The translations under genes were made by a program, and so were the position numbers. From a virus (taxonomy: Duplodnaviria > Caudoviricetes), in the IMG/VR virus record IMGVR_UViG_3300032273_000002, positions 1 to 61,269 of that record: 61,269 nucleotides of DNA; one strand, written 5' to 3'. Under the pieces are notes generated by a model. That model was given only the letters and a program-made list of their open reading frames with translations. It was not told the origin of the DNA and did not search any database. The first letter of the stretch is position 1. Each line of letters begins with the position of its first letter. Shown here in pieces: positions 17,237-60,460 of the stretch.

Positions 17237-20200
17237 TCATTCCCCCAATCGCATTTCGTTTAAGGTTTTGGGTTTGTGCTCGACTTTTGGCCAGGGCAGC
17301 TCTCTGGCCAGGCCGCTTTTGTAGGTCCTATGATACCACTGTTCGGCCAGCTCGAGAACCTGCATTTGATGCGGGCTTAGCATCCCGCGGAACTGATTGC
17401 GGTATTTACTGGTTACCCTGTTGAGCGGGTGAGCGCGAGCGATCGATTGTGTCATGCCTTTTTGTGTGCCGCCCAGCTCAACATACTTTTTAAGGTATCG
17501 CTCGGCTGAGGGCAGATCGCCATACTTGAGGGCCTGACGGTAGTAGTACATGGCGTTTGATTTATCGCTCGGGCTGTAGCTGCTGCCGCCGATGCCCTCG
17601 TCGACTTTTTCCATAAATTCAAAGGTCCAGCTGATGGTCTGATAATATGCCATCTCGCCGGGATCGTTGTTGTAAACGGCCATCGAGGTGATATCAAACC
17701 ACAGCCGCTCGGCTGCCGTGCTGCCGCGCCGCGGCTTGCCGGAGACAATGCGGTAGGGCCGCTCGAGGGAAAAAAGCCGGAAGATCTCACCGACCTGGTC
17801 GCGCACCGGCCGGCTCTCGAAGGGGCCTTCCGGATAAAAACTCTGACCGCTGGCAAGGGTATAGAGCAGCTTGGGCCCCGGCCGCAGCCCCTGGAAATAC
17901 TTTCGCACAGGCGCCTTCGCTGTCTCTGTGATCCACTCGCCAGGCGCTGTTCTGCCCTTTGCGAGATCGCGAACGTCCTGCGGCAGGTCCTCGCCACCAA
18001 ACCAGGCCAGCGCATCGGAGAAGGCGCCCTGGATGCGAAGGGTCCGGATGCTGCCATCGGATCGGCGCCCCAGGATAAGGTGCATTTGCCGGCGCTGCTG
18101 TTCGGGCAGCTCTTTTTCCTCGTCAGAGAAAAACGTCATATTCCAAAGATTCACAAGGGCCATAAAGGATACCATCTTTATCCCCAGGGCCGCTGTCTTC
18201 CAGGTGGCTTTTTTACCCAGGGCCACTGGAATCAATTTGGTGCTTTTGCCCTCGTGTTTCATGTTGGCTATCAGGCGCACGTACCGGGGCGCATTGACCT
18301 CAAGCCAGCTGTAAAATGGGACCATGTGCCGCCGGAGCCATTGGCCGGCATCGGAGATGTTGCCATAGTCGCCGATAAGATCCCGCCCCAGCTTGGCGGC
18401 TTTCTCGTCCAGGTCCTCGATCGCATCGACCTCTGAGCGCCGGCTGGCGCCATAGACCGCGGCCCCTTCGGCAAGCTGGTCCTTGAAAAACCGCCAGGCA
18501 GCCAGCCGCAGGATGTTCTCGCGCAGCGCGGTGATGTTCTTCGGCCGGGTCCAAAAGGTGTGTTTCAACCCGCGGCCGATGCGCTGAAACATCGAGGGGT
18601 CGCTGAAGGCCTCCAGGGCCTCCTCGTAGGTCAGGGACTGCGAGAGCTCGCTGAGCTCCTGGACGCTCCAGCCGGATCCGATCACCCCCAGGCGCCTGGC
18701 CAGCTCGAGCTCTTTTATTGTCTCGTCGCTAATCGCCTTCGGCCGGCCCCATTTTACAGCTCTGAGCGCCTTTTCGGTCCAGGTGACTTTGCCCTTGCTG
18801 CGATACTCGCGCACAAGATCACGCATCGCGGCGCCAAAATAGGCCCCCTGCAGCCGCGGGTCATAGGCAAAGGCGATGTCCATGTCACCGGAAAAGTTGT
18901 TCGCATTGTACTTGAAAACCCGCATCGGGTTGATCAGCGTCCACTGCTTCCAGCGGCCCAAAAATTTAGCCGACCATTTTGCCATCCAATGATTGTCTGC
19001 GACAGTTTTGCCGTAATTGTCCAGCGTGCGGGCGAGATCGTTAGGGATATACCACTCGGGATCCTTGCCCTTTAGCCAGACCTCGCGCATCTTCGCCTCG
19101 CCAATGGCGATGTCGCCGCTGGCGATCTTATCGATCATGCGGTCGGTGATGGTGGTGGCCTTGTACCACACCGAGCCAATCGCCGGTTTCCAGGGCACGT
19201 AGCCTTCGGGCAGAAACTCTTTCCATTCACGTTTCTCGCCGGTCTCCCGCTCGTGGCTCTTGGCCAGCTCCTTGGCCCGCTCGGTGTAATCGGCAATATT
19301 TTTGATGCGGTTGAGCGAGCCCAGGGTCTCGAGCTGCAAAAACGCCTGGGCGATGACCTCGTATTCAGCCTGTGCGTAGTCGGTGTTGTAGTCCGCCAGA
19401 GAGCCGGTTCTGGCCAGCTGCCAGCCCTTCTTGCGGTATTCCAGCCGGCGCTGCGAAAGGCCCGCGCCCAGGTAGTATTGATCGCCCTCGCTGGTCAGCG
19501 CCCGATACTTTAACACCTGGTGGTGGAAATACCGGTCGTCCTCGAGCACCTTCTCATCCAATATGTGGTGCTTGACCAGCAGCTGCTTGAGCCGCCGATT
19601 AAACAGATCCCTGCGAGCCAGGGCGCTTGCGACCAGTCGATCGCCGTTCGCCTGGTCCGTAACGTACTTGTGGTATGTGCGGACCTCAGCTTCCGTTTTA
19701 AATCCAAATGGATATCTCTCATCCTTTTCGGCATCCGGCCTAAGCAGTCCGGAATCGATGTCCTTGATCATATCGTCCATGATCAGGGCCATCCGGAAGG
19801 CCGTATACTGTTTGGGCTTTAGACCGTGCAAGATGTTGGTTATAACCGAGCCGGCCCGCCTGGCCGCGTTTTCTCCGACCTCCTGGTGGAGCCTGAGCAC
19901 GTTTAAAACGGATCCATAGTTTTTGGGGTCGAGTTCGGCGTAGCTTCGCGTAAATGTGTTTTTGGCCTCGGTCATCAGCTTCCGGATGCGCTCTACGACC
20001 GGCGGCTCCTTGAGGCCCCCGGGTTGCTCGATCCGCTTGCGGGTCTTTTCGTCAAGGGCATCGAGCACGTTCTCTGCCATGTCATTCTCGCCCGCCTCTG
20101 GCGGCATGGTGGCCTCGAGCATCTGGATGTATTGATCGACAACCGGTCGCAGCTGCGGGTTGCTCTCGATGCCCTTTTTGGCCGAAAACATCGGCGTGAA

Positions 20201-23200
20201 TTTGCGCTTGCCGATGGCAACGACCTCATCGCCGATGCGGAATTGCTCGGGCGCCCCGTACAAATCGGTATACTGGCGCCTTAAAACCCGCAGAGGCACA
20301 TCGTCATCGCTGTGGCGCTCCAGGAACTCGTGATAAAACGGGACGCCGGTCTCTCTGATGCTAAGCGCCTCCAGGGCCTCGGGAGTGGCGACCGCCTCAA
20401 GCTGCTCGCGATACAACGCACTGACCCTGGCCGGCTGCAGGCGGCTTGGTTTGGCCGAAAATAGCGGCATGCCTTCTGACGCTTTTTGTCGCATCTTGTC
20501 GGTAACATCGATTGCCGATACGCTCAGCGGATCCCGGTAACCTTCAAACTCAAGAAAACCATGAAGGACGGTTTCGTAGGCATCCTGATATGAATCGAAG
20601 ATCAGGCTGGTGTAACCGCCTGCGTAAAAAGGGGAGTCTGTATCATCACTCTCTTTGACCCTAAAGACCCCTGTTTCGACCTCTTCGATTTGGCTGACGA
20701 TTTGATCGTGCGAGGGCACATATGAAATGGCTGAACTGTCTTTGGGCGACTTAGAGACAACTATCCGGTGGACCTTCGCATTGCCCCAGGATTTTTTGTT
20801 AAACATCCGGTTGACGTTGTTGGTCAGCATCTTGTCGTAAAATATTTTCATGCCGGCGCCACCGATGTGCAGGTCGCTGCCCGAGAACGTCCAGTCTGTC
20901 CCTTCTGAATCCTCAAAGACTTTGCGGGTCAATTCCTTGCCAATAACTCCCTCGAGCTCGTTGCCTTTAAAGGCGCCGACATCTTTCCACAGACCCTCCT
21001 GGCGGGTGCGCACTTTCACTTCGTATTTATCAACGTCTAATTTCGTGACCACCACACGGTCGGTATAGGTGCCCAGGCGATAGCGTTGGGCCTGGATGTG
21101 CCCAGGCGTCCAGGCGATGCGATCAAAACCGTGGACGGCCGCCCACCTGACCATGCGCTTGAACCCGAGCATCATCCAGGTGTTGGCGCCTTTCCAAGGG
21201 GCCTCGGGCACAGCAGAAGCATCATACCCCTCTCTTGCTTCGATAGCCTCTATCCGGTAAATATCCTTCTGTGCTTCCGGCAGAGCTTCAAATGGGGTGT
21301 TGCTGACAGTGCCGTAAATATGTTGATTGTAATATTCGTGGGCTATTTGGTCGAGAGCCTCTTGCCGGTAAATATCCTGCTTTTCTTCCGGCAGAGCTTC
21401 AAATGGGGTGTTGCTGACAGTGCCGTAAATATTTTCATTGTAATATTTAAGGACATACTCCTCATCGGAGAGGTCCATTTTTTCCGGATCGAAATAGCCA
21501 TGCTTGTGGCCCTGCTCGTGCCAGTCGCTTTGGATCTCTTCGATAAACAAAACCCTCTTGCCGTTGGCATCGTAGCGCTCGTTAAAGCGCACATGCAAAA
21601 TTGGATTGGTGGTATCAAGCCCGCGATTGGACCAGTGGTCGTATCCAGCAGCTGGCTCAAAGCTGCCTATTTGCCGGCCAGAATACTCGGGCATTCCCTC
21701 TATCTTGGCCATATTATGCTCGAGCCCGGCCTCGAGCTTTTGTTTTTGTGCAAGCAATGGCGCCGCCTCCCGCCACGCTGCAGGGCTCCTTGTCGCCTCC
21801 GATACCCACTCATCCTCATAAGACGGATGCCGGGTGATATTGGCCGTAAACGTGTCATCGCGCTCTGCGATTTCGCGGAGATCGCGTTCGATATCTCTTA
21901 TCAGCTCTTTGGCAAGTTCGATCTCATACTCCAGATCGTTAAATTCTTTCCACTCTTTGTCGGTACGAGAGACAAGCGTGGGATTAATCGACATGATCAG
22001 CTCGGTGTATCGGTCTCCACCGTGGACCTGGTAATCCGCGTATTGCGGACTGCTCTCACCCTCATCGAATTCATCTTCGGCATTTTGTTTGTAGTAGCTA
22101 AGGGAATATATTTCACGAACAGTAGGAGGAAATTCGGCTCGGTCTGCATACAACTCATCAACGTCTGCGAGAAGCGAATCCAACAGGGAGTCATCGTTCC
22201 GGTTTACATAATCATGAACGGCGTCGTCGTATTGCTCTTGAAGAGCATCAAATTTTTTTCGTGTGATGGTGCCGTTGTTTAGCAGCGCGGATGTAAAATC
22301 GTCCCAATCATCTGCTAATTGATCAACGACGGCACGGCGCAGATCGGTATAGTCTGCGGTGCTCAGCACCTCCTCTTCGAGATATAAGCTGCCAGAATCG
22401 ACAATGTCGAGGACTTCTTCTTTGGTGATTTTCCCTCCTCCGGCATCCTTTGGTTTAAAGCCTGGAAAAAGCGGGTCGGCTGCCGCCGTTGGCTTCTCGA
22501 GTTCCTCTGGCAGTGAGGACCACTCGAGCTCTTCGGCCTTGAACTCTTTTCCGGCCCAGGCCTTGATCATCTTGTACATGTTTTCCCTGGTGCTCTTATT
22601 TGGCAGCTTCTTGGCCAAGACGTTGCGCATCTGCGAGTACCAGCCGGCCTGTTTTGCCGAAAACATAATATCAGCATTTGTGGTGTTAAACGTGCCGCGG
22701 TTAAACACCGACTTTATCTGCGTGGGCTCAAAGACCACATAAGAGTCTTGAACTTTGTCGGACTCCTCGAGAGCCTTTTTTCTGGCGTAGATCTCAGAGC
22801 GGCGCTCTTCGTTGTCGGGCGAAACAGCATCGAGCTCGGCCATGATCGCGGCCATGCCCTCGATCTCACCCGAATTTTTATAGACGAGACCGTCATAGCC
22901 CTTGCTTTCTAAAAGCCGGATTACTTCCTCGGTAAACTCGGCCTGCAGGATTTCCAGGTCCTTGTCTATATCGTCGCCGGTGCCTTCCATCTGCTCTTCT
23001 ATGTGCATCAGTTGTGACTCGTAGCTGGCGAGCTCCTGAATCTGCCTTTCAGAGAATTTTTTTGTTTTTTCAAGTATAAAAGGCATATTGTACACATCCC
23101 AGGCGCCGGGATCATCAACCCTCAGCGGCTTTTCGATTTTCAGAAAAACCGGATAGATCCGCTGGCCCATAACGCCGGACATGTCCAGCCGGCTTTTGTA

Positions 23201-26200
23201 TGCCAGCCGGTCGTTCGCCTGCTCTTTGGTGCCAAAGTGAATCCCGATATCTCTTGGGCTGCGCCTAAAGCGTGTGAAGTCATCGACGCTGTCGGTGCCA
23301 TGGTAGACCACCCGCGGGTTGCCTTTTTTGTCCACCACCCTGGAGTCGCCAAACCACTGCGCAAACACCGGATTGCTCCGGAGCCTGGCCGCCGAAGACT
23401 TCTCCGACAGCGGCACCTGGCGCTTTTGCGAGGCGATCAAAACATCTCTCTTGCCTTCGGCCTGGCGCACATCCGCGAAGTGCTCACGCAGTTGCGCTCT
23501 AACCAACCTCAGGGCGGTCTTGTGGCTCATGCGCTGCAGGAATCCTTCACGCGAGGCGGCCGGCATGTTGACCACCAGGCGGCCGCCTTTGCGCGAGGTC
23601 GCCGCCACGAGCTGCGCCATGGTGGTGTTAAACGATGACGGTGAATTCTGGACGTTCAATACGTTCGATGCGGCAACGATGTCATATTTGCGCTCAAGAG
23701 CATTGGCGTCATGCGCATCGGGATCGAGGTTCTCGCCGAAGTCATATGCCGTGACCTGTGCGCCGAGCTTGCGCAGTTGATCGAGGTGCGGCAGCTGGCC
23801 ATCCTCGTTTGGTTTGCCGGCACCGTAATCAAGGATCCGGTCACCGCTGCTGGCGATCGCGGCCACAGCCTGGGGCACCGCCTCCGTTAGTCTTTCACTG
23901 GAGGCCACCTTATCGCTTTTATTGGCAACGCGGATATCCTCATTGTTATAAGCGGCATCGTTGCCGCGGCTCTTGACGCTGAACTGCAGCAGCTTGGCGT
24001 CCTCTGGACCGATCAAACGGCCATCGGCAAGCTGCTGGCCGGCCTTGATGGCGATTGGCGCCTGTATCTCGCCACCGCGCAGGTACACATGCGCCATCAC
24101 GGCCTGGTCATGCACCCACTGCAAAAAGTCGTAGTGTTCTTGGGCGGCTTCATAATCAGTGGTTCTTCCTTGGCTCTGCTCCCTTAGATCGTAGAGAAGG
24201 ATGTCACTTTTCTTCCCCTTCTTAAAAGCCTTCATCTGCTTTCTTAGTTTTTTCATCGAATCGCGAATAATCTCAATCGCGGAGACAAGATACCCCTGTA
24301 TGGTAGGCTCCAGCATGATGTTGTTTGGATCGAGGCCGAGCTCCCGCTTGGCTCGGGCGACCAGCGCCAGCTTTTCTTCTCGGCTTCTTGTCCCTGGGCC
24401 ATGTTTTTTCATGATGAACTCTCCGAGGCTCATCGGATCCGCGCCGGAGAGAAAGGTTAAAATAGGGGAAATCTTTTTGGGAAGCTTTGGGTCCTTAATA
24501 GACCAAAGCTTGCCTTTCGTATCGACGCCAAATTCGCGAAAAGCGGTCATGCACCCGCGCTGACTCAATGCGCACTGGCGACAGCTCGATATAAAATGCC
24601 GCTCGCCGGCATCGCAAGGACAGCTGATCTCGCGCAGCTTCGGATTTTCGAGCGCATAGTGCAGCTCCTTCTCTGCGGCCAGAATCAACCCCAGGGCCTT
24701 GTCCTTTTGCAGCGCCTCCATGGTCGCCACCTCCTCGAGCGAGGTGAACAAAAAGGCGTTTGAAATACCGTGCTTGTGCATGTTCTCGACCAAAAAATCG
24801 TGCCCGTAAACTCCGTAGAGCATTTGATCGAGCGAGCCCATCCGCAGAAACGGGGCCGCGGCCGTGCTGATCAGCTCGCGCAGCATCTCATGATGCCGAC
24901 TGAAGATATGGATCGGCCGGTCGGCAACTTTGGCCAGTTTGTTGTAACCCTTTATCTGCTCGATGGTGGTCAAATCGCCTGAGCCCTGCAGCCGGATGAA
25001 CAAAAGCTCCGGCCGTTTCATCTTGCGAGCCTCATCCGCCAGGCGAACCGCCCATTTGTCCGGATCCATCAAAATGGCCAGCTGGTTCCGAAACGCTTTG
25101 TTGATGGTGTCTTGCCGCAGCATATTTGAGGCGGCATAGCACACAATGCACTGCTCGGTCGGATCGCACGTTGCCAACAGAAAGTCAGCCGATCTAATCG
25201 CTTTGGCATTCTCGGTAAGCAGCGGTTTGCCCGCCTCGTCCACTGGCACCAGCAAATTGCCATTGCGCATGAATTGGCCAAATTTGACAAAGGTCTCGCC
25301 GGCAGATTTAATCCGATTGCCCGCCTCATCTTTTCCCGGCGAGCGGAAGCTGAGGCCTCTGGCCTTCGCCATCTCCTTGAGGTTGTATTTTTCGTTGAGC
25401 AGCTCGTGCGCCTCGCCGGATTCAACCACACGGTAGATGTCTATGAGCAGATCGCTCGGCACGATGCTGCGGGCGGGCTTCCGGCCGGCACCTGGCACCT
25501 CGATCGCACGCTCTGAAGGCCCGAATAGGATTTCGAAGATCTGGAGCTCTCGAGCCAACCGGTTGTTCACGATAAAAAACCGAGTCTCGTGGAAGGGCAT
25601 ATCTTTCCACTTTTTCTCTGCGTAGCGCCGTTTGGCATCGAAGAAGATCTGCGGGTTTGACGCCTCTGCAACGCTCATCAAATCGATGCCCTGCTCGATG
25701 CGCCGGTCCAGCTCTTCGCTGCTCGGCTTAGCCTCCATAACGCTTTTCAGCGCCGCAGCCTTTTTCGTGGAAAGCAGGACCTCATCCTTGTTTAGCTTCC
25801 CGTAGTCTCCTCCAACGGTAAACTGCCACAGATCAGGCAAGGCGTTTTGGTCTCGCTGGCTGATGCCAGAGGCGATGTAATCGTGCAACGCCACATCAGA
25901 GCCCAGGGCCCCTCTGAGGCCACGTATAAAATCGGTTCGGCTATTTATCTTCTTCTGAAGATGCTTGTCACCTGCTGGCCCTGGCGCAGCTTCGATGAAA
26001 AAAATCATTCCTTGAGCACTCGTCTTTTCAAGGACCTTGAGAATCTCAACTGCGCCTTGCTTAACCGTTAATCCCTTGGGATATTCGTAAAAGCCGAGCA
26101 CTTGATTTTGGGCATTTAATAGTAAAAAACCCTCTGCATCTGCACCAAACAGATCTTTTTTCACCGAGATGGCAGCCTGAGAATTGTTGACCGCCGGCCC

Positions 26201-28138
26201 GGGTTTGTTCAAACTAAAAACCCGCTCGCGAATGTTGAGCTTTTTCTTTCTCACCGCCGCAGGAATGCTTTCAGGCGTAGTGGTTGTCGAGGTGACGCCG
26301 GCGTTGATAACGACATACTTCGTGCCACCAATGACAATCGGCACCAACTCGATGTCGGCCAGATTCAATGCCACATCAATGGCCCGCATTAGTTCGATAT
26401 CTTGTACCGAGGCTGTGGGGTCCTGGCTGGGGTGATTGTGCGCCGCGTATACCCTGGCGGCCCCGGTGGACATCACGTAGCCAGCCATGGAAGCCACTTC
26501 CGCAGGAGCGGCTCGCGAGGTCCCTTTGACATACCGGTGGACTTCAAGGATCTTGCCCTTTTCGTTAACGGCAACCAAATACAAATTTTCCTGGGCATGT
26601 TTGCGGATATGCGCCATCAGGCTGGCGGCCTCTGCCGGTGTGCGGGCGTAGAGACTTTTCGCTTTAAGCGATCCGGTGGTCACCATCCGCGTGGTCGTGC
26701 TCGCCTGCAGGCCTTCGATATCGCTTTGCCTCGTCGGCTGTTTGAACGAAACGCTTTTCGCGGCCGCGGTTTCCGCCTCGCCTATCTTGGCAATCGGCTT
26801 CCAGGACTCGGGGCTGTAGATGTTGTCGGAATCAACCGCCTTGACCTCTGCAGGCTTGTAGCCCCTGCCGGCAACAACCTGGCCACCGGTGATGCGGCGC
26901 AGGACCTCGGCCCAAAACTCGTTTTTTTCATCTAAAGGATCAAGTGCCCGGTCGATTAGATACTCCAACGGATCGGCGCTGGTTCTTATCTCTTCAACCG
27001 AGACCTCGAGATCGCGTTTAATTTCGGACCTGACCTCCTTGAGCTTTTCATCGTAGCTCATCTCATCGACCGGCTTACGGCCCATCTGCCTGCGCAAAAC
27101 GGGCTCAAGGCCGTGTTCAGAGCCCTTATAAAACCGGTCGATGATTTTCTTTGCAACCGAGGGCACCGCCATTACATTCTCGAGCTCGCCGCGCACCTTT
27201 ACGCTGAAGGTTGCGACATCTTCCGGAAAACTCGCAGGCGGCTGACGTTCGCCTTTAGCGCCCGGGCGTGCGCCAAACGCCCCTCGATGCCTAACTCGTT
27301 GAGCCTCAGCTCCTTTAGGAGAGCGGATGCCCTGGCGCTCCCTTTCTTCCTTCTCATCTTGTAGTCTTTCGTCGGCTGTATTGTACTGGTCTCCGATGCC
27401 ATAGCTGACTCCTATGCCTGACACGCTTATGCGATCTCCCCGTTCATAGGCCGTGCCATCCTTTAATGTGCGGGGTTGGTTTATAGTGAATTCAACCCTG
27501 ATGTCATTTTCCGACTGCCCGCGGATCGTTTCCGCCACGGCTCTGGCGGAAGATTCCCCTTTGACCAACAAGCCTATTTCTTCACCGCCGAGCCGGTAGG
27601 CCGGCACCGGCTGCTCCTGCAAAATGGCGCCCACCTCGCGCAGGACCTTATCGCCCACCTGATGACCCAGGGCATCGTTAAACCAGGAGAAGTTGTCCAG
27701 ATCTACCATGATGACCAAGCGCCGGTCTTTGGGATCCAGCTGCTCATCCTTGGCGAGCTCCTCAAAAAAACCGGCCCGCGTGCCGATGCCCATCAGCTCG
27801 TCGGTGTAGAGCTTGTTGATCAGCTCGCGGATAATCTCTCTGGCCTCTTCGGGATCCTTGACCTTCGCGGCAATGCTCTCGTACATTTGCCTGGTCCGCG
27901 CAGAGCCGATGCGGCGCTCTTGCTCGGGCGCCTTTGCAACCGCAGCGTTAATCTGCCGCAGCACCTGGTTGTATTCACCCTCTTGCTCGGTTATCCATTC
28001 ATTGGCGACCGTGCTGTCGGCCTCACCCTGGCTCATCCCCTGGTCAACGACATACGCTTTTGCTCGCCTGGTAAGGTAAGCGGCCTCCGCCGGTGGTATC
28101 TTCAATGCCTTGAGGCAATACGCGAGTGATTTTCCCAT
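17237..28138 (-). CDS. 3633-aa large polyvalent (probable virion-ejected) protein: GGDEF, JAB/RadC x2, GP88-like, SAM-MTase, ART-PolyVal, EEIQSDW domain, LPD38-like C-terminus
   Basis: DLDNFSWFND..GHQVGD..RLGGEEI; HNHPSQDPTASVQD; CDPTEQCIVCYA..RLQGSGD; LDYGAG..SNVLNV; WFGDS..YHGT..GYDG..VVFEPTQIKS; FIEEIQSDW; DYG..VPFYSW. Confidence 0.9.
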   Translation of the reverse strand: MGKSLAYCLKALKIPPAEAAYLTRRAKAYVVDQGMSQGEADSTVANEWITEQEGEYNQVLRQINAAVAKAPEQERRIGSARTRQMYESIAAKVKDPEEAREIIRELINKLYTDELMGIGTRAGFFEELAKDEQLDPKDRRLVIMVDLDNFSWFNDALGHQVGDKVLREVGAILQEQPVPAYRLGGEEIGLLVKGESSARAVAETIRGQSENDIRVEFTINQPRTLKDGTAYERGDRISVSGIGVSYGIGDQYNTADERLQDEKEERERQGIRSPKGAEAQRVRHRGAFGARPGAKGERQPPASFPEDVATFSVKVRGELENVMAVPSVAKKIIDRFYKGSEHGLEPVLRRQMGRKPVDEMSYDEKLKEVRSEIKRDLEVSVEEIRTSADPLEYLIDRALDPLDEKNEFWAEVLRRITGGQVVAGRGYKPAEVKAVDSDNIYSPESWKPIAKIGEAETAAAKSVSFKQPTRQSDIEGLQASTTTRMVTTGSLKAKSLYARTPAEAASLMAHIRKHAQENLYLVAVNEKGKILEVHRYVKGTSRAAPAEVASMAGYVMSTGAARVYAAHNHPSQDPTASVQDIELMRAIDVALNLADIELVPIVIGGTKYVVINAGVTSTTTTPESIPAAVRKKKLNIRERVFSLNKPGPAVNNSQAAISVKKDLFGADAEGFLLLNAQNQVLGFYEYPKGLTVKQGAVEILKVLEKTSAQGMIFFIEAAPGPAGDKHLQKKINSRTDFIRGLRGALGSDVALHDYIASGISQRDQNALPDLWQFTVGGDYGKLNKDEVLLSTKKAAALKSVMEAKPSSEELDRRIEQGIDLMSVAEASNPQIFFDAKRRYAEKKWKDMPFHETRFFIVNNRLARELQIFEILFGPSERAIEVPGAGRKPARSIVPSDLLIDIYRVVESGEAHELLNEKYNLKEMAKARGLSFRSPGKDEAGNRIKSAGETFVKFGQFMRNGNLLVPVDEAGKPLLTENAKAIRSADFLLATCDPTEQCIVCYAASNMLRQDTINKAFRNQLAILMDPDKWAVRLADEARKMKRPELLFIRLQGSGDLTTIEQIKGYNKLAKVADRPIHIFSRHHEMLRELISTAAAPFLRMGSLDQMLYGVYGHDFLVENMHKHGISNAFLFTSLEEVATMEALQKDKALGLILAAEKELHYALENPKLREISCPCDAGERHFISSCRQCALSQRGCMTAFREFGVDTKGKLWSIKDPKLPKKISPILTFLSGADPMSLGEFIMKKHGPGTRSREEKLALVARAKRELGLDPNNIMLEPTIQGYLVSAIEIIRDSMKKLRKQMKAFKKGKKSDILLYDLREQSQGRTTDYEAAQEHYDFLQWVHDQAVMAHVYLRGGEIQAPIAIKAGQQLADGRLIGPEDAKLLQFSVKSRGNDAAYNNEDIRVANKSDKVASSERLTEAVPQAVAAIASSGDRILDYGAGKPNEDGQLPHLDQLRKLGAQVTAYDFGENLDPDAHDANALERKYDIVAASNVLNVQNSPSSFNTTMAQLVAATSRKGGRLVVNMPAASREGFLQRMSHKTALRLVRAQLREHFADVRQAEGKRDVLIASQKRQVPLSEKSSAARLRSNPVFAQWFGDSRVVDKKGNPRVVYHGTDSVDDFTRFRRSPRDIGIHFGTKEQANDRLAYKSRLDMSGVMGQRIYPVFLKIEKPLRVDDPGAWDVYNMPFILEKTKKFSERQIQELASYESQLMHIEEQMEGTGDDIDKDLEILQAEFTEEVIRLLESKGYDGLVYKNSGEIEGMAAIMAELDAVSPDNEERRSEIYARKKALEESDKVQDSYVVFEPTQIKSVFNRGTFNTTNADIMFSAKQAGWYSQMRNVLAKKLPNKSTRENMYKMIKAWAGKEFKAEELEWSSLPEELEKPTAAADPLFPGFKPKDAGGGKITKEEVLDIVDSGSLYLEEEVLSTADYTDLRRAVVDQLADDWDDFTSALLNNGTITRKKFDALQEQYDDAVHDYVNRNDDSLLDSLLADVDELYADRAEFPPTVREIYSLSYYKQNAEDEFDEGESSPQYADYQVHGGDRYTELIMSINPTLVSRTDKEWKEFNDLEYEIELAKELIRDIERDLREIAERDDTFTANITRHPSYEDEWVSEATRSPAAWREAAPLLAQKQKLEAGLEHNMAKIEGMPEYSGRQIGSFEPAAGYDHWSNRGLDTTNPILHVRFNERYDANGKRVLFIEEIQSDWHEQGHKHGYFDPEKMDLSDEEYVLKYYNENIYGTVSNTPFEALPEEKQDIYRQEALDQIAHEYYNQHIYGTVSNTPFEALPEAQKDIYRIEAIEAREGYDASAVPEAPWKGANTWMMLGFKRMVRWAAVHGFDRIAWTPGHIQAQRYRLGTYTDRVVVTKLDVDKYEVKVRTRQEGLWKDVGAFKGNELEGVIGKELTRKVFEDSEGTDWTFSGSDLHIGGAGMKIFYDKMLTNNVNRMFNKKSWGNAKVHRIVVSKSPKDSSAISYVPSHDQIVSQIEEVETGVFRVKESDDTDSPFYAGGYTSLIFDSYQDAYETVLHGFLEFEGYRDPLSVSAIDVTDKMRQKASEGMPLFSAKPSRLQPARVSALYREQLEAVATPEALEALSIRETGVPFYHEFLERHSDDDVPLRVLRRQYTDLYGAPEQFRIGDEVVAIGKRKFTPMFSAKKGIESNPQLRPVVDQYIQMLEATMPPEAGENDMAENVLDALDEKTRKRIEQPGGLKEPPVVERIRKLMTEAKNTFTRSYAELDPKNYGSVLNVLRLHQEVGENAARRAGSVITNILHGLKPKQYTAFRMALIMDDMIKDIDSGLLRPDAEKDERYPFGFKTEAEVRTYHKYVTDQANGDRLVASALARRDLFNRRLKQLLVKHHILDEKVLEDDRYFHHQVLKYRALTSEGDQYYLGAGLSQRRLEYRKKGWQLARTGSLADYNTDYAQAEYEVIAQAFLQLETLGSLNRIKNIADYTERAKELAKSHERETGEKREWKEFLPEGYVPWKPAIGSVWYKATTITDRMIDKIASGDIAIGEAKMREVWLKGKDPEWYIPNDLARTLDNYGKTVADNHWMAKWSAKFLGRWKQWTLINPMRVFKYNANNFSGDMDIAFAYDPRLQGAYFGAAMRDLVREYRSKGKVTWTEKALRAVKWGRPKAISDETIKELELARRLGVIGSGWSVQELSELSQSLTYEEALEAFSDPSMFQRIGRGLKHTFWTRPKNITALRENILRLAAWRFFKDQLAEGAAVYGASRRSEVDAIEDLDEKAAKLGRDLIGDYGNISDAGQWLRRHMVPFYSWLEVNAPRYVRLIANMKHEGKSTKLIPVALGKKATWKTAALGIKMVSFMALVNLWNMTFFSDEEKELPEQQRRQMHLILGRRSDGSIRTLRIQGAFSDALAWFGGEDLPQDVRDLAKGRTAPGEWITETAKAPVRKYFQGLRPGPKLLYTLASGQSFYPEGPFESRPVRDQVGEIFRLFSLERPYRIVSGKPRRGSTAAERLWFDITSMAVYNNDPGEMAYYQTISWTFEFMEKVDEGIGGSSYSPSDKSNAMYYYRQALKYGDLPSAERYLKKYVELGGTQKGMTQSIARAHPLNRVTSKYRNQFRGMLSPHQMQVLELAEQWYHRTYKSGLARELPWPKVEHKPKTLNEMRLGE
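21246..21447. repeat. 111-bp-period in-frame duplication within the polyvalent gene
   Basis: 48-bp identical core at 21274-21321 and 21385-21432; encodes YYNxxIYGTVSNTPFEALPE..DIYR twice. Confidence 0.92.
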
Positions 28139-35045: not shown

Positions 35046-35615
35046 TTAATTTTCTCGGGTTAAGGTTGCATGATCGATAATCCCCTGCGGGCTCCTGACG
35101 ACATCTACTTTCCACTTTCTGGCCGGCTCGGGCATATCCACTGTCACCGGCGTCGGATTAACGGTGATCACCGGCTCACGCATCTCCGATATTTTCGAAA
35201 CAAACTGATCGAGCACGGCTTGCATCTTTTTCTCCGGACTCGATTTATTGGATTCGTTCGCCAGCATCGCCACGGCCTTGGCCAACCGATCAGTCGACTC
35301 TGCGCCCAAGTGCTCGGGCTTAAGGCTGGCGATCGCAGCGTTCATGCTGGCGCTTTGCGCTGCCATGGCCTCTGAGATCTTGGTTGCAAACCGGCTCAAG
35401 GCCTCCAGCTGACGCTCGTCATCGACTGCCTCCAGCGCCGATTTGATTGACTGCATCGTTGCGAGCTGTTCGGCGTGCATGGTCCGCACGATTTCAGTCA
35501 GTTGCTCCAGGGCCTCTAGCTGCAAGTCGACTTCGGGCTCAGGCGGTGCGTTTAAGCGCTCGAAGTCCTTAGCATCGGCGAGCTTGCCGAGTTCGTCTGT
35601 ATTAAGCACCCGCAT
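35046..35615 (-). CDS. Coiled-coil protein with C-terminal KWKVDVVRSPQG motif
   Basis: Likely start MRVLNT at 35615 (GGAG upstream); the track extension to 35777 overlaps the upstream gene. Confidence 0.65.
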   Translation of the reverse strand: MRVLNTDELGKLADAKDFERLNAPPEPEVDLQLEALEQLTEIVRTMHAEQLATMQSIKSALEAVDDERQLEALSRFATKISEAMAAQSASMNAAIASLKPEHLGAESTDRLAKAVAMLANESNKSSPEKKMQAVLDQFVSKISEMREPVITVNPTPVTVDMPEPARKWKVDVVRSPQGIIDHATLTREN

Positions 35616-37929
35616 TAATGCACTCCAATACCTGGTAGTATTTTTCGATGGTGCCCTCGAGCTCGGTAAGGGCCTCGCGAGGATCGGCATCGATCTTGAC
35701 CATTTGGCCGGATTCGGCATGGATGGCGGTGACCTTGACCTTGCCAGCCCGGGGCATCCGGTAGATGGTATCCTCAACGGCTTTGACTTTGGCCTCGGTC
35801 ACCACCTTGCCCTGCCGGCGTTTGGCTTCCGCGTAAGCATCGGCGATGGCCTGCTCGACTTTCTCCATGCGCTTGACATCGGCCATGCTGCCGACGCCAA
35901 CCTTAAGTGCAGATTTCACCCGTTCGATCAGGGCGCTGACAATTTTGCGCAGCTTCGCGAAAGCATCCGGCGCCCGCTGGTTGAGCTCCTTCCAAAAACT
36001 CGGGCGAGTAAAGGCACGGCCGGCGATATCGCTGCCGAATTCCTTTTTGATGCCCTCAGCGTCGAGCTCAGGAAGGGCAGCAGCTCTGCGGTCCTGTTGA
36101 ATGGCGGCGACATATTGCTGATAATTGGCGGTGTCGGCCATGACCACATCCATGGCCTTGTCCCACAAATCCGGATGCTTCACCGAGAGCTCGTGAAAAC
36201 TTTCATGCCCCAGGACAAACAGATCAGGCTCCGCGGCGTTCTCGTTGATAAAAATGCGCCCGCTCTTCTCGTTATAAAAACCGTTGACCCGGTCGGCCGG
36301 CGAGTCGTACTTGGCTTTGTAAAAAGTGACCTTGGAGTCGATCGCATCGGCAACGGCATGCACGTAGGTCTGCGACCTGGTGGTTTTGCTTTCTGCAACC
36401 TGCTGCAGGTCAAATGCCGGCGTCACTCGCTTCAGCGAGCTCATGCTCGAGATCTCACCGCCCTGGCCCTTGGGCAGCTTCACCTCTTCTTGTTTGGCGG
36501 CCGCTTTCTTGGGCGCTTTCTTGGCGGCTTTCTTCGCCTTGACGGCGTATCGTTTTTCAATATCCTTTTTGAGCTCGGGGAATCGCGCCGCGACGACCTT
36601 GGCCTCTTCTTCTGTGAGATCACCGGTCATTTGGTCCAGGATCATCTCGGTGGCTGCCGCCTCTTTTTTCTCGCCAACCGTTTTGGTTTCCGCTTCCGTT
36701 TCGCCAGGCTCAACGATCTTGGTTTTGTCGGTCAGCGCAAAGCCCAGTTGCCCCTCAGGGCCTGGCAAGGGCTCGATCGGACCCTTGACCTGGCGTTCGC
36801 CTTCGGCAGCCGCAGGCGGCCTCTCAGTGCCTGTGACCGCGTCGGCTGCGACCTGCCCGCCCTTGATCATCGCACCGCCGATCGGAAACAGCGCCCCGCC
36901 GACAGCACCGACAAGACCCGCGTACCCGGCTTTTTTTGTTTGCTCCCAGGTGGCCCACACGTTTTTGGACCGCTCGAGGATCTCGACTGCCGAGGCGTTG
37001 GGATCCTTGGCGTACTCTTCAGAGACAACCGACCACTGCTCCTGGGTAATTTCCTCCAGGCCTTCGGCCGCTGCGCTCTCGGCAAGGTTTTCGACAAATC
37101 TTTTGACGCCAGCTCTGACGCCAACCCGCCTGGCGGCCATGCCGGCCACTGCCCCCAGGGCCTTCAGATTAACGATGTTGCCTACGGTTTCCACTGCCGC
37201 ATTTGGCAGCGCATCTAAAAGAGCAGCGTTCCAGGCCGTGTCACTATCGATGCCCTGCGCCTCGAACTCCGCGGCTCTGGCGCCGGCGATCTGAGAGACA
37301 GCCACCGCGTAGCCGATGGCCGGGTTGGCCGCGGTGGCCACCATCGTCGGGGCAAAGCGAGCCATGCCGGTCACGGCCTGCTCGAAGATTTGGCCCGGGA
37401 CGGATTCGAAGATATTGACCTCGGTGAGCTCGGGCATGGACGCGGCGAATTCCTCCACGTTTGCAACCGCCTCGGCAGTCTCCCTGTCGAAGCGCTCGAG
37501 CATGGCCTGGCCGTATTTGTTGTCCGCATTGATATAGGTGGAGCGCAGCTTGTTGACCTGCTCGTCCTGCTTGCCGATAAACCTGGCGATGTCAGCGATG
37601 CCCTGTGAGCTGGATTGATAAACGGCTCTGCCCAGGCGCACGACTTTTGACTCGGGATCGGCAATGCCGGAGGGGTCCTCGGACATCAAGTAAGCATCGA
37701 CAGTCTCCTGGTTGGTGGCCTTGATGTTGCTGACCATGTCAGGAACGCTCATGTAATCGTAAGCGCTCGGAGGAACAGGCTCAGCAGCAGGGGCAGACTC
37801 ATCGCCGATGCCGTAATAATCCAGAATGTTCCCGCCGGAGGGCTGATTGTCGCTGTAGTCACCGACATCGGCAGAAGCGCTGCCGTCAGATTCGCTGATG
37901 CCGTAATAATCAAGAATGTTACCAGCCAT
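35602..37929 (-). CDS. Internal virion/ejection protein with zincin metallopeptidase (MPTase-like) domain
   Basis: Ala/Gly-rich membrane-like helices and AEGLEEITQE motif; NGFY...IFIN...LGHESFH...KEFGSD (HExxH at 36193-36207 plus a downstream E). Confidence 0.8.
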   Translation of the reverse strand: MAGNILDYYGISESDGSASADVGDYSDNQPSGGNILDYYGIGDESAPAAEPVPPSAYDYMSVPDMVSNIKATNQETVDAYLMSEDPSGIADPESKVVRLGRAVYQSSSQGIADIARFIGKQDEQVNKLRSTYINADNKYGQAMLERFDRETAEAVANVEEFAASMPELTEVNIFESVPGQIFEQAVTGMARFAPTMVATAANPAIGYAVAVSQIAGARAAEFEAQGIDSDTAWNAALLDALPNAAVETVGNIVNLKALGAVAGMAARRVGVRAGVKRFVENLAESAAAEGLEEITQEQWSVVSEEYAKDPNASAVEILERSKNVWATWEQTKKAGYAGLVGAVGGALFPIGGAMIKGGQVAADAVTGTERPPAAAEGERQVKGPIEPLPGPEGQLGFALTDKTKIVEPGETEAETKTVGEKKEAAATEMILDQMTGDLTEEEAKVVAARFPELKKDIEKRYAVKAKKAAKKAPKKAAAKQEEVKLPKGQGGEISSMSSLKRVTPAFDLQQVAESKTTRSQTYVHAVADAIDSKVTFYKAKYDSPADRVNGFYNEKSGRIFINENAAEPDLFVLGHESFHELSVKHPDLWDKAMDVVMADTANYQQYVAAIQQDRRAAALPELDAEGIKKEFGSDIAGRAFTRPSFWKELNQRAPDAFAKLRKIVSALIERVKSALKVGVGSMADVKRMEKVEQAIADAYAEAKRRQGKVVTEAKVKAVEDTIYRMPRAGKVKVTAIHAESGQMVKIDADPREALTELEGTIEKYYQVLECINAGA

Positions 37930-54497: not shown

Positions 54498-55811
54498 CTA
54501 CGAGTACAGACCAGGCTCCACCAGGTCTTTGACCAGCACCAGGCTATTGCGGTCTTCAGTGCCGAGGTTGGTGTAGAGCCTCAGGAACTGATCCCACTCA
54601 TCGTAGCCGGCACGCTGGTGAATTTGCTGGTCCAGGTTGCCCCAGCCGATCGGGGTCATCTCGAATTTCTCGATGGCGCCGTCCGGATGAAGGAATATCT
54701 TCCCCGGGGTTGCCAGCGGATCGATGACCATGCGGATGCTGCCGTCGCCGGCTGCAAACGTCAGCTCTTCGTAACCGCCCTTGAACGTGCCAGGTGAAAA
54801 GCGCACATCCGGAGCGAGCTGGTTGAAATACTTCCTGCGCTGACCCAGGCCCATTCTCATGACCCCAGGCTTTTTACCGGCGCGAACTCGCATGACGTCC
54901 ACGGCCTGCAGCAGCAGATCGAGGCTGAGCTCGCGGTCAACGCCAGAGTTGCCCAGGATACCGGCTCTCCAGCGAGGATATGAGGCCACCGTGATGTCTT
55001 CGAATGAGGCCAGAAGCGTGCCGTCATCGAAAATGCCGTCCATACCTGTGATCTCCACAGGCGTGTCGGTGGTGGCAAACGCGGCATCACGAGCACCGTA
55101 GCGCACCATTTGACTGGCGGCCGGGATCGTACCGGTGCCCACTGTATACGAGCGAGCGGCAACCAACGGGTGAAGGGCCTGAAAGTCAGAGCTGAGGGCC
55201 TCCATGGTAATGGTCTTGGTTACCGGGTTGATGGATTGAATGCGCTGCGCCACCACATTTTGGTCGACGGCGCCGGCGCTGTTGTAGAAGTCAACGATCA
55301 TTCCCTCGATGGCCCGCATGACGCCCAGGTTGTTGTCACAAACAACGTCATAGGCCGAGCCGGTGGCCGGAGTGGCAACCGCGGAATTGTAAGCAATCAG
55401 ACCGAAGCCATCGCCCCAGGCCTGACGGTTCATGTCATTGACAAGTGCGGTGTAGATATCGTCGACGGCATCGGCCAGGCCATCGACAAAGGCCGCCGGA
55501 TCACTCTTGGCGGCTTCGATCATGGGACCGGTCAACCGGAGCGTGCCGTAGATGTATCGCGGCACCACCGTCGCGTTGTCATATTTCCCCGCCAACGGTT
55601 CCGGCAATGGGCTTGATTCCGCCCGCGCCCCAATGCCCTGCGCCCGCGCATAGCGGATCGCAAACTTGTAGCCGAGCCCCCGCGGCGACCGGCCGCTTCG
55701 GGGAAACTGGTTATAGGTGAGTTGTTCATCGGCAAACTGATTGCTGATGCCCGAGCCGTAAACGGTTTTCAGCGTATCGGCAATGTTTGTAAGATCGTGG
55801 TAAGCACTCAT
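54498..55811 (-). CDS. Major capsid protein (HK97 fold)
   Basis: 437 aa after the scaffold; LKTVYG, RYIYGTLRLTG, NRQAWGDG.G, GMDGI and GGYEEL motifs typical of this capsid family. Confidence 0.85.
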   Translation of the reverse strand: MSAYHDLTNIADTLKTVYGSGISNQFADEQLTYNQFPRSGRSPRGLGYKFAIRYARAQGIGARAESSPLPEPLAGKYDNATVVPRYIYGTLRLTGPMIEAAKSDPAAFVDGLADAVDDIYTALVNDMNRQAWGDGFGLIAYNSAVATPATGSAYDVVCDNNLGVMRAIEGMIVDFYNSAGAVDQNVVAQRIQSINPVTKTITMEALSSDFQALHPLVAARSYTVGTGTIPAASQMVRYGARDAAFATTDTPVEITGMDGIFDDGTLLASFEDITVASYPRWRAGILGNSGVDRELSLDLLLQAVDVMRVRAGKKPGVMRMGLGQRRKYFNQLAPDVRFSPGTFKGGYEELTFAAGDGSIRMVIDPLATPGKIFLHPDGAIEKFEMTPIGWGNLDQQIHQRAGYDEWDQFLRLYTNLGTEDRNSLVLVKDLVEPGLYS

Positions 55812-55832
55812 GATGGAAAGACCCCTTATCTG

Positions 55833-56675
55833 TTAGCGCCGGCCAGTGAGCGCATCGAGCAACTGCTTTTTTGCGATCGTTCTGGCATCGCGCAGGTTTT
55901 TAGGTTGGACCTCTCCAGTATCAGACCCTGGTTCAACGCCCCTGTTCATCGGGGGCAGCTTGTCGCCGGCTTTGCCAGATTCCGCCTTGCGCCGGCCGTT
56001 TTTCTCATAGTCCTCAATGATCGAATCCTTGAGGGCCTGGTAATCCTTGGCCGCGGTGTGAATCAGCTTGGTAATGCCTTTGCTATCGGTAAGCTCGATG
56101 TCGTGAATGGGGTTGTTAACCCCTAAATACTTCTTCACGAATTTCGCCTCGGGCTTCGTGAGCTCTTCGAGGCCATCTACCGATTTGGACACATAGCTGT
56201 TGAAGTTTTTAATGGCCTTGCGGTCTTCGGCCGCCTGGAGCTTTGCCTGCTCATCGAGCTGGCGCTCCTGGTCCCGCTTGTTGATCTCCCGCTCGAGCCT
56301 CTCAATGGTCTGCTCTGGAGTTTCGGTTTCACGCCGTTTGGATTCTTCTGCTCGCTGCCAGTCCGCTTTGATCTTGGCCAGGGCTTTCTTGTTGGCCAAT
56401 AGCTCTTCGACATCTTCGGTCCCGAGTTTTTCTTTCAGACTCGATAGGTTTCCGATGAAATCATCGAGCTCCTCAGCTGAACCAAGCTGGTACTTGTCGA
56501 GCAGATCAGTGATTTGTTCCTGGGTCTTTCCGGACCCTGAACTGTCTTTGGTTTTTGCATCTGCATCCTTGCTTGCGGCACTATCGTCAGCAGCTGATTT
56601 GCCTTCTGCCGATGCGCCATCGCCGGTCTTGTCTGTGACATCCGCTGTGGTGTCGTCTACTACCTCTGTGCCCAT
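55833..56675 (-). CDS. Capsid scaffolding protein
   Basis: Acidic disordered N-terminus, coiled coil, C-terminal PKNLRDAR helix; GGAGGTG SD before ATG 56675. Confidence 0.75.
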   Translation of the reverse strand: MGTEVVDDTTADVTDKTGDGASAEGKSAADDSAASKDADAKTKDSSGSGKTQEQITDLLDKYQLGSAEELDDFIGNLSSLKEKLGTEDVEELLANKKALAKIKADWQRAEESKRRETETPEQTIERLEREINKRDQERQLDEQAKLQAAEDRKAIKNFNSYVSKSVDGLEELTKPEAKFVKKYLGVNNPIHDIELTDSKGITKLIHTAAKDYQALKDSIIEDYEKNGRRKAESGKAGDKLPPMNRGVEPGSDTGEVQPKNLRDARTIAKKQLLDALTGRR

Positions 56676-56735
56676 GATCACCTCCATTTGATTGACTCAA
56701 GCGTCACTGGGGTTGCCACGTTACGCTGGAGCCAT

Positions 56736-56787
56736 GACGAAAAAAAGGGATCCTCAAGGCGAGCTCGCGGATCCCTTTTTATTCGTC
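56736..56787. terminator. Bidirectional terminator-like hairpin upstream of the scaffold gene
   Basis: gacgaaaaaaagggatcc...ggatccctttttattcgtc inverted repeat with A/T runs. Confidence 0.75.
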
Positions 56788-56849
56788 GTTGGAGCCGGCA
56801 GCCGCGGGCCAGGCGGGCCGGCAAAATTGTGAGTGTGTGTTTTTAGCCT

Positions 56850-57095
56850 CTAAACAGCTCTATAGATTCCATACTCATATTGTGGCATTTGCTTGCCGGG
56901 AAATTGTTTCGGGTCCACATAAACCTTTTTTGTCGGTTTATACAGGCCGACGATGACCTCTTTGAGACTGTGCTTGTCGAAGACCGGGACCTTGCGGCAG
57001 AACTTCGGCTCAACTCGCAAGATAACGCCAATCAAATACGCACGCTTCTCGTGAGAATATAAAAAGTTTTTGCGTCGGTTTATTTCAACCTTCAC
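56850..57095 (-). CDS. Small basic hypothetical protein
   Basis: GTG start at 57095 overlapping the upstream TGA; GAGG SD. Confidence 0.55.
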   Translation of the reverse strand: MKVEINRRKNFLYSHEKRAYLIGVILRVEPKFCRKVPVFDKHSLKEVIVGLYKPTKKVYVDPKQFPGKQMPQYEYGIYRAV

Positions 57096-57280
57096 GCTGC
57101 AGCCTCTCGCTTTTCTTTGCAAATGGCTTTTGCAAACACCTCCAGGCGAAGTGTCGCGTTGCGGCAGGGCCGATCCGGCAGGCCGTACTCGCAGAACAGG
57201 CCCCATTTTTTAAAGCCGCGGCATTTATCTTGTTGATACATATTGCATACACATTGGGCAGTGAATCTGATCTCACGCAT
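57092..57280 (-). CDS. Small Cys-rich protein
   Basis: 62 aa with 6 Cys; immediately after the portal. Confidence 0.55.
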   Translation of the reverse strand: MREIRFTAQCVCNMYQQDKCRGFKKWGLFCEYGLPDRPCRNATLRLEVFAKAICKEKREAAA

Positions 57281-57285
57281 GGTTG

Positions 57286-59621: not shown

Positions 59622-59640
59622 AGCTCTCCCTTTGCTTGCT

Positions 59641-60119: not shown

Positions 60120-60143
60120 ATCGCACCCCTTTTTTTAATCTTG

Positions 60144-60446: not shown

Positions 60447-60460
60447 GGCTCTCTCCTTTC

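Follow-up and report, generated by a model that had tools for sequence, protein, structure and literature searches.

What holds the enzyme cassettes of a giant phage protein together, and do they stay together? The question is raised by P0001, a polyvalent (multi-effector) protein encoded in the IMG/VR virus record IMGVR_UViG_3300032273_000002. The entire record (61,269 bases, linear, estimated to be ~95% complete) was analysed and is called the window here. A preliminary description of this DNA proposed that the cassettes of P0001 are punctuated by a recurring [FL]SxK linker, that this linker is a cleavage site, a recombination joint, or both, and that a candidate processing protease is encoded in trans. 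The junction motif is real and recurs far beyond chance; a zincin-like domain in a separate 775-residue protein is the leading candidate for its reader.

The [FL]SxK tetrapeptide was found exactly seven times in P0001, at each of the positions first described and at no others (Table 1). Expectations were calculated from amino-acid composition and from 5000 shuffles: 1.8 sites were expected, and seven or more were reached in a fraction of only 0.0026 of the shuffles. Narrower forms of the motif deviated further, with five FSxK against 0.53 expected (shuffle fraction 0.0004), five FS[AV]K against 0.08, and three FSAK against 0.05 (0/5000 shuffles for each of the last two). The remaining 72 called open reading frames (ORFs) of the window contained one FSVK, at residue 86 of the portal protein, and one LSVK, at residue 581 of the 775-residue protein and directly after its HExxH motif; by a rough estimate, each is at about the chance level. 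A scan for natural splits, that is, for ORFs starting or ending at the motif, returned only spurious small ORFs.

All seven sites lie outside Pfam envelopes, and indels adjoin the motif in pairwise alignments; a short motif thus recurs at domain junctions, as had been proposed. The position of the sites relative to folded domains, one of the observations named beforehand as able to overturn the proposal, could be judged in part: the Pfam envelopes spare every site, but an AlphaFold 2 (AF2) model of residues 1375–1900, spanning three junctions and built on a 12-row alignment, had a mean predicted local distance difference test score (pLDDT) of 46.8, too poor for placing the motifs in linkers.

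The sites divide P0001 into eight modules. In a Pfam scan with matches considered to E ≤ 1, four enzyme domains exceeded the Pfam cut-offs (GGDEF, RadC, ART-PolyVal, and Methyltransf_23, the last at 3.3e-7 and 30.6 bits when the module was scanned alone), so that P0001 unites several effector-type domains in one polypeptide, as polyvalent proteins do with their 2–15. These four confirm the enzyme assignments made at the outset; the GP88-like assignment at residues 990–1095 fell below its cut-off (21.8 bits against 24.4), and only the first member of a supposed JAB pair was recognised by Pfam, module 2 containing a second region that was not. "About seven separate enzymes", as first envisaged, is therefore too many: four of the eight prospective fragments have Pfam enzyme domains, one is weakly GP88-like, and three (modules 6 and 7 and the C-terminal 979 residues) matched zero Pfam families at E ≤ 1. 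The end of module 1 is a low-complexity stretch followed by FSVK at 311–314. The FSAK at 1826 stands about eight residues beyond the projected end of the ART-PolyVal (ADP-ribosyltransferase, ART) model, positions 1–135 of 140 of which align to residues 1603–1813, and the ends of BLAST high-scoring segment pairs (HSPs) cluster at 1824–1838, around the end of module 5. The C-terminal core found no match to the LPD38 or LPD39 Pfam models at E ≤ 1; by language-model features it resembles LPD38/LPD39 clusters (score 0.97; 61–96% of a cluster carry LPD38), which we treat as a lead only.

Two candidate processing enzymes within P0001 were rejected. The HEQGH at residue 2207, which follows the EEIQSDW of residues 2200–2206, is not a conserved HExxH (relatives have HQEGR), and the precomputed Pfam domains of the motif-rich relatives P0007 and P0008 list no RadC, which removes the RadC/JAB domain from consideration. 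As a separate observation, the first ~60 residues of module 6 (residues 1830–1887; window 22480–22651) form a mini-module, WYSQM...LPxK...EELEW, that is 50–56% identical in P0006–P0010, P0069, P0070, P0132, P0133, L023, L033, L058 and L078; in these otherwise differing giant proteins its start lies nearly always a few residues after a junction motif.

A search with the C-terminal core recovered 50 giant proteins of 2058–6001 residues that share it, with N-terminal cassettes that vary widely (Strawberry-notch and SNF2 helicases, N12 methylases, RadC, ART-PolyVal, GGDEF, LPD domains, and others). Searches for further loci with the core alone or with the 775-residue protein gave nothing, and a first alignment (A1) was too diverse; a scan of IMG/VR with a second alignment (A2) yielded 110 further stretches with the core, of which 80 were kept (L-numbered loci). 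The phage collection held no DNA match to the P0001 gene and no protein match to the core; against the N-terminal 2563 residues it returned single ART or GGDEF cassettes only, in 14 records. Across all 50 proteins FS[AV]K was seen 34 times against 3.6 expected. FSVK, LSVK or FSAK was the most enriched tetrapeptide in P0002, P0005, P0007, P0008, P0010 and P0013, and ranked fourth in P0001.

The motif also recurs at cassette ends in these relatives: after the conserved ART tail (N-x-G-x-F...I-[MRL]-[FL]S.K), ahead of the start of ART (FKKWF), behind the EEIQSDW cassette, which ends in ...GMP[LM], and immediately before the core. Over 45 sites the wider consensus was G(-4), P(-2), L/M(-1), F/L, S, V/A, K. 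In P0005 the cassettes of P0001 are found reordered, with a second ART copy and with [FL]S[VAI]K on either side of each cassette; the points of rearrangement between the two proteins fall at the motif, including one in module 2.

The motif also varies between lineages. By core, P0003 stands closest to P0001 (54% identity), and the two proteins are colinear; its five alignable orthologous junctions read FSVE, FSLE, LSVQ, LSVE and FSVP; a sixth is rearranged (LLQFSSPLK), and one further site did not align. The form [FL]S[AVLI][EQ] occurs seven times in P0003 against 0.81 expected (1/5000 shuffles) and the corresponding [KR] form not at all (0.92 expected), whereas P0001 shows the reverse (six [KR] against 1.07 expected; one [EQ] against 0.95). 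The more distant L022 has FSLD six times, and [FL]S[AVLI][EQD] ten times against 1.19 expected; L038 has FSLE, FSLA and FSLD, while P0011 and L011 have FS[ML]R. One position has changed in concert at many junctions that follow unrelated folds, which points to one common reader and is hard to explain by independent domain caps.

Large cassette proteins of two other phages were also inspected. The cultivated 63-kb Pseudomonas phage vB_PaeM_USP_18 (L087; MT491207.1, 28440–43283) encodes a 4947-residue protein with an ART-PolyVal domain at the same genome position, where several large late ORFs of no annotation precede it and holin and lysozyme come next; the protein has two HExxH motifs, neither of which matches the zincin family of the window. 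Caulobacter phage Jess A (L084; MK942064.1) encodes a 2040-residue "lysis protein" in which an HExxH module (LHEAGHH) comes immediately after ART-PolyVal and the joint lacks an FS junction motif.

Conservation at the junctions could in principle reside in the DNA or in the peptide. The three FSAK sites, which all read TTTTCGGC[A/C]AAA, share TTTTCGGCMAAA, and the two FSVK sites, which read TTCAGCGT[A/C]AAG, share TTCAGCGTMAAG. The sharing of DNA noted in the preliminary description was thereby confirmed, but identity among the sites of the window ends at the 12 nucleotides of the motif. From the codon usage of the gene, the probability that three FSAK sites have identical F, S and K codons is ~0.006, a post hoc estimate; the shared codons may reflect local duplication or gene conversion, and are insufficient to make the motif a recombination signal. 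In L078 (= P0007), six FS[VL]K sites use the serine codons AGC (three times), TCT, TCC and AGT. Serine is thus drawn from both codon boxes, which are not interconvertible by single silent changes, and this argues for selection on the peptide.

The candidate reader is encoded 7.5 kb upstream of the P0001 gene. The 775-residue protein begins with two copies of GNILDYYGI inside its first 45 residues (window 37780–37929), followed by Ala/Gly-rich hydrophobic stretches, and appears to be ejection-protein-like; its N-terminal 500 residues are common to the stand-alone proteins P0052, P0053 and P0064 and to the 2362-residue P0054. The HExxH-containing domain that had been reported in this separate gene was borne out in its C-terminal part. 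HESFH begins at residue 575 (HExxH at 36193–36207; H575, E576, H579), and these three residues and E630, the candidate third ligand, are invariant in a 33-sequence alignment; G550, G574, D634 and F645 are nearly so. The AF2 model of the domain is confident (pLDDT 86.6; predicted template modelling score, pTM, 0.84) and places both metal-ligand motifs on helices (model positions 70–85 and 125–141). Zincins predominate among its structural neighbours, which include lethal-factor-like domains, PprI/IrrE, Pro-Pro endopeptidases (PPEP), M32 carboxypeptidases, thermolysin, and ArdC. Foldseek against the PDB gave no match at E ≤ 0.001, and Pfam on the 33 members gave only single weak matches to M48, DUF6782, M91, YgjP-like and M78. 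On this alignment and model, we take the domain to be a gluzincin-type zincin of an uncurated family, with predicted peptidase activity, that would fit the description of the zincin-like metallopeptidase (MPTase) given by Iyer et al. (PMC5512222). With the domain as query and a threshold of E ≤ 0.001, HMMER recovered 604 cluster representatives; among the best 150, 100 had a length of at least 1500 residues.

The zincin and the polyprotein are linked by gene fusion in relatives. Residues ~506–712 of the 775-residue protein match an internal module of six core-family members (P0005, E = 1.3e-59; P0010 and P0007, ~2.5e-26; P0008, 4.5e-24; P0011, 9.8e-22; P0025, 2.7e-13), so that the zincin is fused inside the polyprotein in five close relatives and one more distant. 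No other gene of the window matches the core family. The L011/L046 record carries the zincin in a separate 1214-residue ORF, in trans as in the window. Such fusion is a Rosetta-stone link supporting a functional connection between zincin and polyprotein. In the fused relatives, sites of the FS.[KR] type start only downstream of the zincin module, with the exception of FSAR at residue 241 of P0010; a cut at the sites after the fused zincin would free an N-terminal piece comparable to the 775-residue protein of the window.

Some features of the zincins themselves were recorded alongside. The L022 polyprotein has two copies of the zincin module (residues 567–755 and 1604–1754) and six FSLD junctions. 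Zincins of lineages with the K/R dialect (the window, P0005, P0007, P0008, P0010, P0011, P0061, L058 and L082) have HE[S/T]xH and an upstream D-x-x-N-G strand; those of the D/E-dialect and motif-poor lineages (L022, L038, L004, L023, L026, L033, L068 and L069) differ in that HE is followed by a hydrophobic residue and the Asp is missing. This comparison was made post hoc on a small sample.

Taken together, the location of the motif at cassette boundaries, the selection on its peptide, the concerted dialects, and the fusion of the zincin in relatives make a cleavage site with its cognate protease the best reading, and it is on such comparisons that the earlier proposal of a cleavable linker now stands. 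We give roughly even credence to the specific statement that the motifs are protease sites between effector cassettes and are read by the co-encoded zincin. Under this proposal P0001 would be a phage polyvalent protein with its cassettes joined by a peptide approximating G-x-P-[LM]-[FL]-S-[VA]-K, and the motif would be both recognition and cleavage site for the gluzincin-type metallopeptidase domain of the 775-residue protein. Polyprotein and 775-residue protein would both be packaged, and the zincin would cut the polyprotein either inside the capsid or after ejection, giving up to eight fragments: GGDEF, RadC/JAB, GP88-like, methyltransferase, ADP-ribosyltransferase, two unassigned modules, and the conserved core. 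A hydrophobic P1' residue is a common preference of zincins, and a cut before F/L would fit it. Packaging, injection and cleavage of P0001, together with the timing of the cut and the bond concerned, are all predictions. Further support comes from the window, where no prohead protease was recognised, and no protease family of any kind turned up, in 30 ORFs scanned with PHROGs, 10 of these also with Pfam (the only ORF scanned between the portal and capsid genes, of 284 residues, had no family match), and from the main text of Iyer et al. 2017 (PMC5512222), which proposes processing by MPTases.

A bolder version of the proposal, which we regard as quite doubtful, is that tetrapeptide and zincin form a co-evolving protease-site pair, with the dialects FS[VA]K, FS[ML]R, [FL]S[VL][E/Q] and FSLD, such that each lineage has a private protease to free its own effectors. 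If the cut were made before F/L, the effectors would start with a destabilising N-degron residue and would have a short lifetime built in.

Co-occurrence of zincin and motif was examined across the family. Records of 55 of the 80 loci were searched for the zincin, and it was found in 13/55 (5/17 among records at least 90% complete). FS[AVLI][KRDEQ] was then counted in the cassette part only, the last 1000 residues being removed. Loci with a close zincin had 19 motifs against 2.49 expected (five loci, including two pairs of near-duplicates), and loci with a distant zincin had 10 against 4.09, seven of them supplied by L022; eleven zincin-free records at least 90% complete had 2 against 4.19, and the other loci 13 against 14.26. 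Among the 50 core-family proteins, FS.[KR] was seen 28 times against 6.1 expected in the six with a fused zincin, and 54 times against 35.5 in the other 42 proteins. Every motif-rich polyprotein whose zincin status is known has that domain, either in cis or in trans (P0001, P0007, P0008, P0010, P0061, L022 and L058); the zincin-fused P0005 is motif-rich only if the LS form is counted.

Several observations weigh against cleavage by this zincin. On the core tree the motif-rich rows fall in few neighbouring clades, which leaves three or four independent contrasts and a non-significant sign test, so that the association is inseparable from shared ancestry. P0003 and P0013 stand outside the zincin tally, their contigs being too short or irretrievable (of the P0013 contig, a 2.2-kb fragment was recovered). 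Zincin-bearing loci without an enriched motif were found (L004, L026, L068, L069 and L053 with none; L023, L033 and L038 with one each), and over 96 zincin-bearing giants FS.[KR] was just 1.26-fold enriched (81 against 64). As for the sites, the polarity of their flanks scarcely exceeds that of randomly chosen positions (upstream, 0.61 against 0.58; the downstream difference is not significant). Of 203 BLAST HSP endpoints between P0001 and its family, 24 lie no more than 12 residues from a motif, where 9.5 were expected (P = 0.088), with endpoint clusters at only four of the seven sites. In the unrelated USP_18 protein, which shows no overall enrichment of the motif, FSRD and FSRS flank the ART cassette, and part of the motif may therefore travel with that cassette. 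As for the zincin, its structural scores are modest (Z ≤ 5.9; best Foldseek E 0.035), the domain of the window has no Pfam match at E ≤ 1, and a PDB profile search found nothing significant.

Two other explanations of the peptide were considered. First, the motif may be a cleavage or recognition site with a reader other than the 775-residue zincin, whether a host protease, an unrecognised phage protease, or a non-proteolytic packaging or chaperone partner; in that case the zincin itself would act as an effector, or as an enzyme of the cell wall or of ejection. The dialects demand a common reader without naming which, the zincin-bearing polyproteins that lack the motif fit this explanation, and many ORFs of the window are without annotation. 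Podovirus ejection proteins also carry peptidoglycan-directed metallopeptidases (e.g. cyanophage A4 gp28, M23), and the main text of Iyer et al. (PMC5512222) also considers MPTases as effectors that act on host proteins. We nevertheless consider a different reader unlikely: the zincin accompanies every motif-rich polyprotein of known status, the near-complete zincin-free genomes show no excess of the motif, and a host protease would not explain the switch from K to E/D among related phages unless their hosts differ alike.

Secondly, the motif may be structural, a conserved cap or strand at cassette ends that keeps domain folding independent, in a polyprotein that works uncut as does the N4 virion RNA polymerase. 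Many members have P[LM]FS within the conserved C-terminus of the module-6 cassette, the conserved ART tail of the unrelated Pseudomonas phage protein is followed by FS, and the flanks are not clearly disordered by composition; in the main text of Iyer et al. (PMC5512222), the N4 enzyme, ArdC and TraC1 are described as transferred unprocessed. Yet one tetrapeptide follows at least six unrelated folds, its fourth residue (K, E/Q or D) shifts in concert over all cassettes of one protein, and indels directly adjoin it; moreover, the stand-alone ART of Tenacibaculum phage pT24, the only one examined, ends without FS. A structural role is accordingly improbable in our judgement, and cleavage by the zincin remains the preferred reading. 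Lastly, the preliminary description had allowed for a DNA recombination joint. It is very improbable that the motif is the footprint of such a joint, a microhomology for cassette shuffling with no peptide function: the DNA shared by the FSAK and by the FSVK sites, the post hoc codon estimate, and the varying cassette order with breakpoints at the motif speak for it, but the identity stops at 12 nucleotides, the same peptide is encoded in L078 by serine codons of both boxes, the dialects differ at the amino-acid level and in a charge-consistent way, and selection that lets only motif-preserving joints survive would place breakpoints there just as well.

The gene setting is that of a P22-like podovirus. 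The P0001 gene is the final large ORF of a minus-strand block of late structural and ejection genes that runs from the portal through the major head protein, a 1883-residue lectin-domain protein, and several large unannotated ORFs; its start and the stop of the preceding ORF share one base. P0001 is thus encoded by a phage beside packaging and virion genes: its gene shares the strand of the P22-like portal, the major head protein, and large ORFs of tail or ejection type, and lies downstream of them. Genes on the plus strand and on the left-hand side encode DnaB-like, DnaD-like and RecT-like functions, and among these early/replication genes a 310-residue ORF (10030–10962, plus strand) matches a PHROG annotated as transposase (5.8e-34). 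The 1883-residue protein (41936–47587, minus strand) contains a DUF2341 domain besides three Laminin_G_3/ConA-like lectin stretches, and is probably a tail fibre or receptor-binding protein. The large terminase subunit was not seen beside the portal (59460–61269 and 1–530), only small ORFs lying upstream of it; since the record is linear and ~95% complete, the terminase may be absent at the ends or unrecognised.

Table 1. Coordinates of the modules and junction sites of P0001, of the zincin-bearing protein, and of the head genes in the window (aa, amino-acid residues).
Feature	Position	Strand	Basis or remark
Polyvalent (multi-effector) protein P0001, 3633 aa	17237..28138	-	ORF calling and Pfam
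Module 1, GGDEF nucleotide cyclase (GGEEI motif), aa 1-314	27197..28138	-	Pfam GGDEF 111-208, 6e-17
Junction FSVK 311	27197-27208	-	
Module 2, RadC-like JAB (HNHPS...D), aa 315-792, end LSTK 789-792	25763..27196	-	Pfam RadC 500-609, 4.7e-20
Junction LSTK 789	25763-25774	-	
Module 3, Cys-rich, weak GP88 match, aa 793-1389, end FSVK 1386-1389	23972..25762	-	Pfam 1.9e-4
Junction FSVK 1386	23972-23983	-	
Module 4, class I methyltransferase, aa 1390-1580, end LSEK 1577-1580	23399..23971	-	Pfam Methyltransf_23 1423-1534
Junction LSEK 1577	23399-23410	-	
Module 5, ART-PolyVal ADP-ribosyltransferase, aa 1581-1829, end FSAK 1826-1829	22652..23398	-	Pfam 1603-1813, 1.8e-19
Junction FSAK 1826	22652-22663	-	
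Module 6, WYSQM...EEIQSDW...GMPLFSAK cassette, aa 1830-2563, end FSAK 2560-2563	20450..22651	-	No Pfam match
Junction FSAK 2560	20450-20461	-	
Module 7, small 91-aa module, aa 2564-2654, end FSAK 2651-2654	20177..20449	-	Motif and alignments
Junction FSAK 2651	20177-20188	-	
Module 8, conserved C-terminal core, aa 2655-3633 (979 residues)	17240..20176	-	No Pfam match
775-aa protein	35602..37929	-	N-terminal repeats and hydrophobic stretches, C-terminal zincin-like domain
Zincin-like (gluzincin-type) domain, aa 508-723	35761..36408	-	Alignment, AF2 model, structural neighbours
E630, candidate third ligand	36040-36042	-	
Head module	54498..59463	-	P22-like portal, 284-aa ORF, major head protein
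P22-like portal	57286-59463	-	
284-aa ORF	55833-56687	-	No family match; scaffold role guessed from gene position
Major head protein	54498-55811	-	

Phages and conjugative elements widely encode polyvalent proteins, and their cutting into separate effectors after delivery has been proposed since 2017. The locus described here and its relatives offer a defined tetrapeptide, a defined (predicted) catalytic glutamate, E576, natural dialects, and natural fused and split arrangements. If the zincin does cut at the motif, the fragment boundaries of many giant phage proteins could be read from sequence, and a new uncurated zincin family, of the size given above, would be added.

Some elements of the proposal have counterparts elsewhere. 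Prohead proteases cut capsid-internal proteins at short motifs, T4 gp21 at L/I-x-E (including in Alt, an injected ADP-ribosyltransferase) and phiKZ gp175 at S/A/G-x-E. Those systems, like the one proposed here, have a short linear motif repeated in packaged proteins and a single phage protease as its reader; unlike the window's candidate, a zincin in a phage with a P22-like head and no recognised prohead protease, their proteases are head-maturation enzymes of the herpesvirus-assemblin type. MARTX toxins are multi-effector toxins secreted by bacteria, in which the toxin's own cysteine protease frees the effectors at inter-domain linkers. They are alike in concept only, with no homology, another delivery route, and a cysteine protease in place of a zincin. 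In the literature searched on polyvalent-protein cleavage and virions, LPD38, and ejection metallopeptidases, we found no junction motif or matched protease-site pair described.

Closer comparisons are provided by phage proteins that are themselves packaged. The phage P1 proteins DdrB and DarA (Dar) are head-packaged, proteolytically processed anti-defence proteins, and the C-terminal MPTase of DdrB is proposed to cut DdrB (PMC5512222); in that account they differ from the window polyprotein in being smaller and singly cut, with no repeated inter-cassette site described. The phi24B protein gp47, of 2811 residues with LPD5, LPD1 and LPD38 domains and a MuF-C metallopeptidase domain, was abundant in virions by proteomics and is a proposed ejection protein (bioRxiv 10.64898/2026.04.10.717836), which makes it the only packaging precedent. 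Like P0001 it is a large podovirus polyvalent protein, and the window core resembles LPD38 clusters, again a lead only; unlike P0001, it has no junction motif or processing reported in the available text of the preprint, and the window core has no sequence match to any record of the phage collection. The nearest comparison remains that of Iyer, Burroughs, Anand, de Souza and Aravind 2017 (PMC5512222), who described phage polyvalent proteins with a zincin-like MPTase and proposed zincin processing. No cleavage site is named in its main text, where "linker" and "boundaries" occur 0 times (the supplements lay outside the search). The window resembles the systems described there in that a giant multi-effector protein is encoded next to virion genes and contains ART-PolyVal, RadC, GGDEF and methyltransferase domains, and in having a zincin with HExxH and a downstream Glu, fused or adjacent. 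It differs from them, as far as the main text goes, in its defined junction tetrapeptide with lineage dialects and in a zincin that has no Pfam family above cut-off and is encoded in trans, in a separate ejection-like protein. Cleavage of the junction motif by the co-encoded zincin is thus a specific, testable variant of the MPTase-processing proposal already known.

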